Shown piece by piece: positions 27,390 to 28,942 of a DNA stretch of 64,000 bases. A program made the translations under genes and the position numbers. Origin of the DNA: a phage; sequence record PZ386959.1; one strand, written 5' to 3'. The notes beneath the pieces were generated by a model that had not been told where the DNA came from, did not search any database, and worked only from the letters and a program-made list of their open reading frames with translations. How positions within the stretch are numbered: position 1 is the first letter of the stretch; each line of letters opens with the position of its first letter.

Positions 27390-27428
27390 CATCACTTAAA
27401 AATCCTCTTAGAAGACTCTTAAGTGATG
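27390..27428. repeat. long hairpin, copy 1 (10-bp stem, 19-nt loop)
   Basis: CATCACTTAA-aaatcctcttagaagactc-TTAAGTGATG; the two arms are perfect reverse complements. Confidence 0.8.
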
Positions 27429-27541
27429 TAATCGAATTTTTATGTAGCTCCGATTAACTACCCGCACTTTACCAAACCTCACCCTACCCTACCAGACCTT
27501 ACCTAACCGCGCCGTACCTCATTAAAAGACCCTCTTAAAGA

Positions 27542-27569
27542 CCTTTTAAAAAGGAGCCTCCGAAGAGGC
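27542..27569 (-). terminator. minus-strand terminator after the two-gene cassette
   Basis: Plus-strand GGAGCCTCCGAAGAGGCT hairpin (stem AGCCTC/GAGGCT, loop CGAA) preceded by CCTTTTAAAAAGG, i.e. hairpin plus U-tract on the minus transcript, 13 nt after the stop of 27582-28022. Confidence 0.5.
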
Positions 27570-27581
27570 TACCTAGTCAAC

Positions 27582-28022
27582 TTAGAAAGGTTTTCTACGT
27601 TGCTTGTTAATGTTAGCTTTCATAGCAGCTAAATGGTTTTGCTGTTCAATTAGTCGTGAACGTTCTTGATGACTAAGTGCCATAGTGTTCACATTCTCAA
27701 TCGCTTGAGTGGCTTGCTTTAAAGCACGACCAATCTTACCAGACATTTTACGTTTTGCAATAGTTGCTTGATGCTTAGGTTCAACCACACGATAACCAAC
27801 ACCCATTGAAGCAACCAGATAAATCTTCTCTTCTTTAAGAAGCTTCTCAATAAACTTCTCAAGTCGGTTTAGACGTGTAAGCGCATAAGCCTTCATTTCA
27901 TCTTCGTACTTAACAATGTCACCTTGATAAGTTGGTTTCACAATACCTAAGAAGGTATCCATCTCAGAATGTGATACAGTGTCACCGTAACTAAACTTTG
28001 CTGCTAATGCTTTTGTATTCAT
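27582..28022 (-). CDS. hypothetical protein (cassette gene 2)
   Basis: 146-aa ORF with a basic, helical C-terminal half; its stop is followed on the minus strand by a hairpin/U-tract terminator. Confidence 0.4.
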   Translation of the reverse strand: MNTKALAAKFSYGDTVSHSEMDTFLGIVKPTYQGDIVKYEDEMKAYALTRLNRLEKFIEKLLKEEKIYLVASMGVGYRVVEPKHQATIAKRKMSGKIGRALKQATQAIENVNTMALSHQERSRLIEQQNHLAAMKANINKQRRKPF

Positions 28023-28024
28023 AA

Positions 28025-28627
28025 TTAAACGTTACCTTCTGAAATAACTTCTACAGAAAAACGACCAAAGCGTGGACGCCAATCACCTACACCACAAAGG
28101 TTGCCAGCATTTTCAAGAACCATCAGAAGTTCCTCTTTGGTGATTTGCTCTTCATCGAACATCAAACCGAACTCTACAGACCAGTCACGGAAGATTGGAC
28201 GGTAGCTCATAACTCGTGCTGTACCAATCTTAACAGACTTAGCATAGATGAAGTCTGGATTCTTAGCAAGTTCTTGTGGGTTTGCTGGACAGTTCTTAAT
28301 AGTCATTGGGAAGACTACATCTGTCAGCATAATGGCTCGGTCAATTACCTTACCAAGTTTGTTGAGTTTTGCACCAGACTTGATACAAGCCTCAATCATC
28401 TCACCGTTCATAACAAAACCTAGCTGCTCATCGTAGTAACAAGAGGTTACCAGTTGGCTTTCTGCTAAGAGCGCATAGTCTTCGTCAGTCTTTTTACGTT
28501 TACTGGACAGAGACTTGTGATATTTTGTCAGAGGGTTTAATGGGTCTGACAGCGTATCGTTATGGCTCAGGAAAGGACGAGTACCAGTGATTTTGATATT
28601 TAACAGTTTCATAGCATTTAGCTCCAC
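28025..28627 (-). CDS. hypothetical protein (cassette gene 1)
   Basis: 200-aa ORF separated by 2 nt from the downstream gene; no motif recognised; flanked upstream by intergenic module R2. Confidence 0.4.
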
Positions 28628-28710
28628 ACTTTAGTTGATTGTTAAGTTGTTTGTAAAGAACCCTCAACAGAAGACTCTTTAGAAACTTGGTAGATTTTTA
28701 ACGTGGCTAC

Positions 28711-28900
28711 TACCATCCACCCATACCAGACCAGACCAAGCCAAGCCCAACACTACCGAACCGGACACGACCAGACCTTATTAAAAGACCCTGTTTAAAG
28801 ACCTTTTAAAAAGGTAAGTCTCATTTTAATGTAGCTGAGACTAACTACCCACACCAAACCATAGCATACATCGCATTACCGGACAGAACCATACTTTACC
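28711..28900. repeat. intergenic module R2: two arrays of 5-nt-phased NNACC pentamers (D 28711-28777, E 28841-28900)
   Basis: CC dinucleotides recur at 5-nt (occasionally 10-nt) spacing, for example 28722, 28727, 28732, 28737, 28742, 28747 and 28850, 28855, 28860, 28880, 28890, 28900. Confidence 0.8.
28777..28850. repeat. conserved 74-nt box, copy 2
   Basis: Identical to copy 1 except one G to A change (GGTGAGTC versus GGTAAGTC). Confidence 0.85.
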
Positions 28901-28903
28901 AAA

Positions 28904-28942
28904 CATCACTTAAAAACCCTCTTAAAAGACTCTTAAGTGATG
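28904..28942. repeat. long hairpin, copy 2 (10-bp stem, 19-nt loop)
   Basis: CATCACTTAA-aaaccctcttaaaagactc-TTAAGTGATG; stem identical to copy 1, loop differs at 2 positions. Confidence 0.8.

Follow-up and report, generated by a model that had tools for sequence, protein, structure and literature searches.

A repeated hairpin ahead of the guides in a predicted type II VIPR locus of a Felix O1-like phage

What does a long inverted repeat with a conserved centre do beside two arrays of pentamers in a phage genome? The question is raised by a 64,000-nucleotide stretch of phage DNA (sequence record PZ386959.1; the whole stretch is referred to here as the window), in which the repeat, termed HpA, is very probably an RNA hairpin formed on the sense strand of a guide-RNA array. 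As judged by sequence comparison, the locus is a type II VIPR (Viral Interference Programmable Repeat) system of the published SUSP1 clade. The 39-nt sequence CATCACTTAAAAATCCTCTTAGAAGACTCTTAAGTGATG occurs without mismatch at 27390-27428 and with two mismatches at 28904-28942, both of which fall in the central 19 bases of a layout that reads CATCACTTAA-N19-TTAAGTGATG on the plus strand, and no further match with three or fewer mismatches was present in the 64-kb window (0 expected from shuffles). The duplication described in an earlier reading of this stretch (the sequence-only reading) is therefore borne out, as are its statements that pentamer arrays, ACCNN on the plus strand, adjoin both copies and that a U-tract is absent on either side of the hairpin. 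The ACCNN arrays are confined to two intergenic regions, R1 (27068-27581) and R2 (28613-29007), and the pattern has 23 overlapping matches against 0.03 expected.

The strand of the sequence-only reading was wrong. All of the genes surrounding the element lie on the minus strand, as does the functional RNA, in which the array reads (YNNGG)n. The hairpin had been placed directly after the array; it does adjoin the array, in the reverse order, standing 5' of it on the minus-strand RNA.

Fold and covariation of HpA

The minus-strand RNA of both copies folds into an 18-bp stem closed by a 3-nt loop, with energies of -21.1 kcal/mol (27390-27428) and -15.9 kcal/mol (28904-28942) and fold z-scores of -7.3 and -6.4, respectively. 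The plus-strand RNA of the same two copies reaches only -9.9 and -8.6 kcal/mol, because the G·U pairs of one strand turn into A·C mismatches on the other. A 10-bp stem with a 19-nt loop, as first described, is too short, since the minus-strand RNA pairs over 17-18 bp and most of the supposed loop is itself paired. There are two stem types in the window: T1 (CAUCACUUAA/UUAAGUGAUG), to which both of these copies belong, and T2 (CCUUUUUAAAAG/CUUUUAAURAGG), found at 27242-27280, 27517-27554 and 28776-28814.

Covariation was examined in an alignment of 32 different HpA sequences, drawn from 19 loci of Ounavirinae (Felixounavirus, Suspvirus and Mooglevirus, with three contigs of IMG/VR). Across these copies the 17-pair helix is occupied by standard pairs in 94.7% of cells, compared with 43-70% when the partner is slid by 1-3 columns, and six pairs vary on both sides. 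A G·U pair is found at 13-28 in all 32 copies and U·G pairs at 14-27 and 16-25 in 28 of the 32. T1 and T2 differ at 7 of the 12 outer stem positions and retain complementarity, with compensatory changes at pairs 2, 4, 6, 8 and 12. That the arms differ and yet stay complementary indicates selection on pairing and not on a DNA word, which in turn argues against a binding site in double-stranded DNA or a homing-endonuclease target. Fold prediction and covariation over related phages, the check proposed with the sequence-only reading, have thus recovered a paired stem with compensatory changes, and the G·U pairs specific to the sense strand together with the compensatory stems support selection on RNA pairing. 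Two features of the alignment weigh on the other side: the double-sided changes mostly do no more than split T1 from T2 and so represent few independent events, and isolated mismatches (A·G, C·A, A·C) interrupt the outer stem of certain copies. No Rfam family matched the window at gathering score, and matches within 27000-29100 were only at chance level (E > 0.7).

The nuclease or recombinase target proposed in the sequence-only reading is unsupported. HpA is an inverted repeat and HNH endonuclease genes lie a few kb away in related genomes, as might be expected of a site for a homing endonuclease or site-specific recombinase, but HpA tracks the guide arrays and not the homing-endonuclease genes, at one copy per guide and up to five per genome. 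The module itself has no endonuclease or recombinase gene, and the two complementary stem sequences and the strand-specific G·U pairs speak for RNA; such a site is very improbable.

The VIPR locus and the place of HpA within it

The VIPR system was first described in two preprints from 2026 (bioRxiv 10.64898/2026.04.26.720920 and 10.64898/2026.04.26.720927; hereafter the VIPR preprints), according to the text of which it is an RNA-guided DNA silencing system used by phages against rival mobile elements and a proposed ancestor of CRISPR effector proteins. Its components are the single-RRM RAMP homologue Vipr, the accessory protein Vap and guide RNAs termed vrRNAs, each with 9-16 YNNGG repeats followed by an invariable tail of ~40 nt that contains a hairpin and a pseudoknot (VIPR preprints). 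Each repeat is bound by one Vipr protomer, and the NN dinucleotides pair with double-stranded DNA, every third base being skipped, to silence transcription (VIPR preprints). For the SUSP1 clade the natural targets are reported to be a satellite phage, and guides of ~100 nt have been found bound to Vipr by small-RNA sequencing and pull-down (VIPR preprints).

The sequence-only reading did not see the pentamer arrays as guide RNAs. When IMG/VR was scanned for the bare DNA pattern (GGTNN)6GGT, at least 120 contigs were recovered, many with long punctuated arrays, and open reading frames (ORFs) were called in the pattern-selected loci and their proteins clustered. One family of ~180-210 aa, the Vipr homologues, was present in 35 of 120 loci selected in this way, so that the bare pattern is able to find VIPR loci; its ORF lies nearly always on the G-rich strand and ends 0-75 nt before the arrays. 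A 195-aa protein of the window falls in this family. It shares 191 of 195 residues with PDB entry 36pp, 'SUSP1 Vipr protein' (E 6e-128), retains in the alignment all of the residues that contact the GGY motif of the RNA (H17, E71, M72, R138, C173, D177, W178 and R179) and belongs to phrog_4652, and it had no match in Pfam. The 146-aa product of the gene directly downstream of vipr is identical at 145 of 146 positions to the product of the second gene of the SUSP1 operon, which is named vap1 in the VIPR preprints.

Several other ideas about the arrays were considered and dropped once the arrays had been tied to Vipr. One was a TRAP-like ring binding (GGUNN)n, where the GGY is indeed read every 5 nt but by a helical Vipr filament. 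The others were an R-loop replication origin (similar to T4 oriF) or pentamers of the immunoglobulin switch kind, loading of Rho on the antisense strand, which is rich in C, iterons or a partition site, decoys resembling Chi, and G-quadruplexes.

The window derives from a Felix O1-like myophage (Felixounavirus), which across 5 kb is 92-96% identical to dune, heid, wV8 and further phages of E. coli. In the order of the minus strand, the locus contains a promoter, two guide units, vipr, vap1, a terminator and three further guide units. Each unit is composed of HpA, 10-15 YNNGG pentamers, and a 6-nt linker that leads into another hairpin, HpB, whose loop is GCUACAUUAAAA or related to it. R2 holds the two units behind a strong sigma-70-type promoter and R1 the three units behind a terminator-like hairpin. 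The features are, from 5' to 3' on the minus strand:

28973-29000, minus strand: sigma-70-type promoter of the first guide array, TTGACA-16-TATACT, 11/12 consensus matches
28904-28942, minus strand: HpA copy 1, type T1, 5' of guide a and with no guide before it; 18 bp, -15.9 kcal/mol
28849-28903, minus strand: tract of vrRNA a, 11 YNNGG pentamers, 5 of them degenerate (read from the sequence)
28817-28848, minus strand: 3' tail of vrRNA a, linker GUAGUU and HpB AGUCUCA-GCUACAUUAAAA-UGAGACU (inverted repeat, by reading)
28776-28814, minus strand: HpA copy 2, type T2, CCUUUUUAAAAG/CUUUUAAUAAGG (fold and alignment)
28721-28775, minus strand: tract of vrRNA b, 11 pentamers
28689-28720, minus strand: 3' tail of vrRNA b, linker GUGGAU and HpB GGUAG...CUACC, pseudoknot GUGG/CCAC; SUSP1 vrRNA1 has the same tail
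28654-28681, minus strand: degenerate HpA-like hairpin UAAAGAGUCUUC-UGUU-GAGGGUUCUUUA (paired by eye)
28025-28612, minus strand: vipr, 195 aa, RAMP-family guide-RNA-binding protein (PDB 36pp match)
27582-28022, minus strand: vap1 accessory gene, 146 aa, 145/146 to the SUSP1 gene in the same position; phrog_5926
27555-27570, minus strand: intrinsic-terminator-like hairpin AGCCUC-UUCG-GAGGCU after vap (terminator scan)
27517-27554, minus strand: HpA copy 3, type T2, 38 nt
27462-27516, minus strand: tract of vrRNA c, 11 pentamers; identical tract in phages dune and I14.1
27429-27461, minus strand: 3' tail of vrRNA c, linker GUAGUU and HpB UAAUCG-GAGCUACAUAAAAAUU-CGAUUA, the 'second hairpin' of the sequence-only reading
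27390-27428, minus strand: HpA copy 4, type T1; 18 bp, -21.1 kcal/mol, z -7.3
27315-27389, minus strand: tract of vrRNA d, 15 pentamers, several degenerate
27283-27314, minus strand: 3' tail of vrRNA d, linker GUAGUU and HpB AGUCUCA...UGAGACU
27242-27280, minus strand: HpA copy 5, type T2
27192-27241, minus strand: tract of vrRNA e, 10 pentamers
27160-27191, minus strand: 3' tail of vrRNA e, linker AAGGAU and HpB GGCAG...CUGCC, pseudoknot AAGG/CCUU
27112-27159, minus strand: long inverted repeat, rich in A/U, that follows the last tail; its arms span 27113-27131 and 27141-27159

The five tracts, of 10, 11, 11, 11 and 15 repeats, lie within the published range, and their NN dinucleotides vary between tracts and between phages. 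Compared with the SUSP1 system, the window has Vipr and Vap proteins that are 98% and 99% identical, the same gene order with arrays flanking both sides, the same YNNGG repeats, tail hairpin with pseudoknot and promoter, and an HpA before the guides, which SUSP1 carries before all four of its own. The two differ in guide number (two upstream and three downstream in the window, one and three in SUSP1) and in NN content. The VIPR system was thus already known and the locus adds nothing new beyond the SUSP1 clade. The genome papers of Felix O1 and wV8 do not describe the arrays, and the GenBank record of wV8 marks only a 58-nt repeat, 'DR_4'. Exact targets of tracts b, c and e with the 1-nt skip were absent from the viral, genome and metagenome collections, in which the E. 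coli satellite is probably not represented, as the skip pattern of SUSP1 vrRNA1, for which that satellite is named as target, had no match in them either. A shortened core of nine dinucleotides gave 25 random-looking matches in unrelated low-GC contigs, none of which extended.

HpB and the 6-nt linker before it are the published vrRNA 3' tail. There are four HpB classes with covarying stems (AGUCUCA/UGAGACU, AAUCG/CGAUU, GGUAG/CUACC and GGCAG/CUGCC), and by direct reading the 5' part of the loop is complementary to the linker, the two covarying as well (GUAG/CUAC, GUGG/CCAC and AAGG/CCUU, linker first); in vrRNA a the linker GUAGUU pairs with the loop bases AGCUAC. This fits the pseudoknot as described in the text of the VIPR preprints. 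The second hairpin noted in the sequence-only reading (AATCG...CGATT, 27430-27455) exists, but the likeness of its loop to that of HpA does not hold: it is a member of the HpB family (loop GCUACAUUAAAA), which supplies the upstream guide with its 3' tail and pseudoknot. A promoter within the tail hairpin (loop TAAAAT) was considered and rejected, the -35 box matching at only 3/6 positions and the promoter scan making no call.

HpA precedes all five guides of the window. Among 20 related loci, an automatic rule placed an HpA of 38-40 nt before 80 of 84 guide units, and the remaining four were recognized by eye as variants, with a loop insertion (Moogle, SflM004) or a 1-nt deletion (Z31, I14.1). 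In most units a whole number of 5-nt steps (45-80 nt) separates the 3' end of HpA from the tail linker, from which it follows that HpA abuts the first repeat in register; 0 nt separate it from the repeats and 1-2 nt from the pseudoknotted tail of the previous guide. The first HpA of R2 follows the promoter and has no guide ahead of it, so that HpA is more than an element closing the 3' end of the guide before it. Of the functions suggested in the sequence-only reading, an RNA processing or stability element or a structured non-coding RNA core came close, HpA being an RNA hairpin within a non-coding array of guide RNAs.

A stable hairpin (-21 kcal/mol in one copy) 1-2 nt after each guide tail could also be a transcription terminator or attenuator that ends guide transcripts or controls read-through into vipr. 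The stem is however A/U-rich with no U-tract after it, unlike an intrinsic terminator, and the terminator scan made no call in these regions except for the GC-rich hairpin at 27555-27570. Neither the absence of a guide before the first HpA of the upstream array nor the expression of the SUSP1 guides downstream of each HpA (VIPR preprints) is in keeping with termination, which is improbable.

The same guide tract occupies different array positions in different phages, as loci L001, L130 and L131 show when set beside the window; in VpaE1, for example, UGUUCGGUAGGGUCUGGUAGGGUAAGGUCUGG... stands upstream, and in dune and ULIM8 it is the second of the downstream guides. It seems that guides travel as cassettes with the conserved hairpins at their borders. 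Felix O1 (L005 3501-3782; NC_005282 57632-57913) lacks vipr and vap and retains a single orphan unit with an R2-type promoter, a T1 HpA that has lost 1 nt and contains an A·C mismatch, a tract of 11 repeats in partly degenerate form, and an R1-type terminal tail and promoter, so that vipr and vap look to have been deleted when the upstream array recombined with the downstream one. In many Salmonella Felix O1-like phages, as in Felix O1, the match to R1 is limited to its first 135 nt.

Such rearrangements could be taken to mean that HpA acts at the level of DNA, either as a homology block for the exchange of guide cassettes and for vipr-vap deletion, with the hybrid unit of Felix O1 as the expected product of recombination between repeated units, or as an operator for Vap or a nearby helix-turn-helix regulator, given that perfect inverted repeats of 10-12 bp could bind a dimer and that type II Vap is predicted to bind DNA (VIPR preprints). 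Recombination is a by-product of any repeat and needs no hairpin, however, and neither the complementarity kept between stem types that differ at 7 of 12 outer positions nor the three conserved G·U pairs, which lengthen the helix only in the sense RNA, would be called for by a DNA element. A function at the DNA level is unlikely.

Candidate roles of HpA in guide maturation

In SUSP1, vrRNA1 is made up of a promoter, a 27-nt leader, HpA, exactly 12 repeats, the linker and the tail. The sample used for cryo-EM had 12 repeat units, 12 Vipr subunits and the 3' pseudoknot, and the published guide is below 100 nt and consists of 'repeats + 3' tail' (VIPR preprints). Since 60 nt of repeats and ~40 nt of tail fill such a guide, there is no room in it for the 39-nt HpA, and the published lengths and stoichiometry suggest that HpA is part of the precursor and is cut out of the mature guide. 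The supplementary text of the VIPR discovery preprint gives no guide sequences and no mapped ends.

A role for HpA as a precursor-processing and boundary hairpin is favoured here with some reserve. In this role HpA would serve as punctuation between guides, would keep neighbouring tails and repeat tracts from mispairing, and would mark the stop, or 5' limit, of a Vipr filament that grows 3' to 5' from the pseudoknot. It would also present a double-stranded target to an endonuclease; after the cut, the upstream guide would be shortened by 3' exonucleases as far as its pseudoknot. In E. coli, vrRNA1 and vipr suffice for processing (VIPR preprints), so that the cutter would be either Vipr or a nuclease of the host. 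Among the latter RNase III is the leading candidate, although it is less likely than not to be the nuclease. A more specific proposal, which is plausible but on balance not the expected outcome, is that HpA is the biogenesis signal of SUSP1-clade guides, cut in or at the hairpin by RNase III or Vipr, with the invariant G·U-rich core (GUCUU / AGGGU) as the recognition determinant. If so, HpA would play the part of the CRISPR repeat hairpin and would be needed in multiplexed synthetic VIPR arrays.

Several points weigh against a processing role. For a substrate of E. coli RNase III, a stem of 17-18 bp is short and of borderline length. To our knowledge E. coli has no 5' exonuclease, and a cut within the stem would leave ~10 nt of the 3' arm on the guide. 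Arrays of other VIPR clades in IMG/VR (L015, L103) have very short punctuation and no hairpin, which means that a hairpin is not a general requirement. Two arrangements elsewhere speak for a processing role by analogy. The discovery preprint describes arrays of other VIPR types that are interspersed with hammerhead ribozymes, and in a Xanthomonadaceae locus (L139), where Vipr is 41% identical, each tail is followed, at the position of HpA, by a 9-13-bp hairpin with a stem that differs per unit; this locus also holds the single instance of the HpA core GUCUU...AGGGU outside the SUSP1 clade, too little for a claim. The text of the two VIPR preprints mentions no hairpin 5' of the repeats, though the figures may show one, and accordingly does not address a role of HpA in guide maturation.

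HpA might instead be only a structural insulator or stop signal that blocks Vipr from polymerising past the first repeat and prevents mispairing with neighbouring repeats and tails, the ends of the guide being made elsewhere or by trimming of unprotected RNA. The exactly 12 repeats between HpA and tail match the 12 Vipr subunits, filament intermediates resolve in the 3'-to-5' direction (VIPR preprints), and the 3' arm of HpA contains in-register repeat-like pentamers (UGAGG/UAAGG in T2; UUAAG and UGAUG in T1) that pairing would hide from Vipr. HpA directly adjoins the repeats (0 nt) and is parted from the previous tail by only 1-2 nt of single-stranded linker, which leaves hardly any site for a cut outside the hairpin, and mature guides of <100 nt would still need the hairpin to be removed. 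An exclusively insulating role is accordingly rated as rather unlikely, and some insulation may accompany the processing and boundary role preferred here.

Beyond what is known of the system, the locus contributes HpA itself, a conserved, strand-specific and covarying RNA structure that delimits every guide. The mechanism by which guides are released matters for VIPR biogenesis and for the design of multi-guide arrays.

Punctuation in other arrays and minor observations

HpA resembles the Cas6-cut hairpins of CRISPR types I-E and I-F in that conserved palindromic elements alternate with variable guide segments in one precursor and mark the guide boundaries for a filament of RAMP-family protein. 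It differs in that the VIPR locus has no Cas6 or second RAMP gene and no spacer acquisition genes, and in that the cap kept on the mature guide is the pseudoknotted tail, HpA apparently being discarded. Nor is the locus a CRISPR array, as pentamer tracts stand in place of contiguous spacers, the conserved elements that alternate with them are of two kinds (HpA and the HpB tail), and its only genes are vipr and vap. RNase III hairpins between cistrons, as in phage T7 early mRNA and rRNA spacers, are likewise long double-stranded elements, made mostly of A/U and G·U pairs, that lie between functional RNAs in a polycistronic phage transcript, and, as is proposed for HpA, they are processed in E. 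coli without phage factors. An RNase III site comprises about two helical turns of duplex RNA, cut to leave a 2-nt 3' overhang; classical sites have ~20 bp or more and an internal loop, whereas HpA, a putative site, has 17-18 bp. HpA is thus fully neither a CRISPR repeat hairpin, for want of Cas6, nor an RNase III site, cleavage being putative. The hammerhead-interspersed VIPR arrays share with HpA the principle of a structured RNA between guides that serves, or in the case of HpA would serve, to release single guides, but HpA is a simple hairpin and, having no ribozyme core, would need a protein nuclease.

The Xanthomonadaceae locus (L139 3576-3920; metagenome-assembled genome GCA_015999665.1) has three hairpins per inter-guide region: the tail GCUG-N4-CAGC, the 9-13-bp hairpin with its unit-specific stem, and a 5-bp hairpin GAUGC-N4/5-GCAUC. 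One of its middle hairpins (GGGGGUCUUCGCAAGAGGGUCCCC) has a GGUCUU...AGAGGGUC core in common with HpA T2. Three IMG/VR loci (L015 3391-3846, L025 2217-3374 and L103 3233-4392) possess very long arrays of 7-17 or more guide tracts, each just downstream of a Vipr homologue, with short, contig-specific punctuation and no long hairpin (AAGGCTAATGGGT; AAGGAATGGTTTAATGAATTTAATT; GGCAGTT), and are probably other VIPR types. At three further loci (L119 ~820-880, L028 ~14890-14934 and L138 ~2410-2460), with Vipr homologues that are 33-42% identical, a stem with a T-loop-like GGTTCGAnTCC comes after the repeat tract and resembles the T-arm and acceptor minihelix of a tRNA. Neither ARAGORN nor Rfam called a tRNA at these tails; the stem might act as a handle through which RNase P or RNase Z processes the RNA.

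Among the remaining pattern-selected loci, 18 (L037, L040, L046 and 15 others) encode a common protein family of 115-457 aa, the ORF of which overlaps the pentamer match on the opposite strand in 16 of the 18. No Vipr homologue lies close to them, and their repeats may be coding sequence that has nothing to do with VIPR.

Within the window, the degenerate HpA-like hairpin at 28654-28681 sits between the last upstream guide and the ribosome-binding site of vipr and has a GAGUCUUC...GAGGGUU core in common with HpA. The U-run of the terminator at 27555-27570 overlaps the 5' arm of the next HpA, and the inverted repeat at 27112-27159 holds the -35 box of the next gene's promoter (TTGACA-17-TATTTT). 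Guides d (27315-27389) and a (28849-28903) have GG changed to UG, AG, AU or GC in several repeats (5 of 11 in a) and may be decaying or non-functional; mutation of the GGY motif abolished silencing (VIPR preprints).

The promoter at 28973-29000 has a counterpart upstream of SUSP1 vrRNA1 and is annotated as a promoter in phage AYO145A. Over its -10 box lies an inverted repeat (28945-28984, GGTGAGTA...TACTCACC) that is kept in Felix O1, wV8 and SUSP1. The 5' arm of this repeat is upstream of the likely transcription start, so that it is not an RNA hairpin, and it may be an operator. Between the promoter and the DNA ligase gene, a 48-aa hydrophobic ORF (29008-29154, minus strand; phrog_22006) is present in wV8 and VpaE1 and absent from Felix O1 and SUSP1.

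Three records (GU169904.1, MG065668.1 and PP892526.1) are odd in this region: those named Staphylococcus phage SA1 and Campylobacter phage A126 contain Felix O1-like sequence that covers it, and Escherichia phage vB_EcoM_I14.1, filed as Tequintavirus, is Felixounavirus-like here. These oddities in the SA1, A126 and I14.1 records probably reflect contamination or mislabelling.

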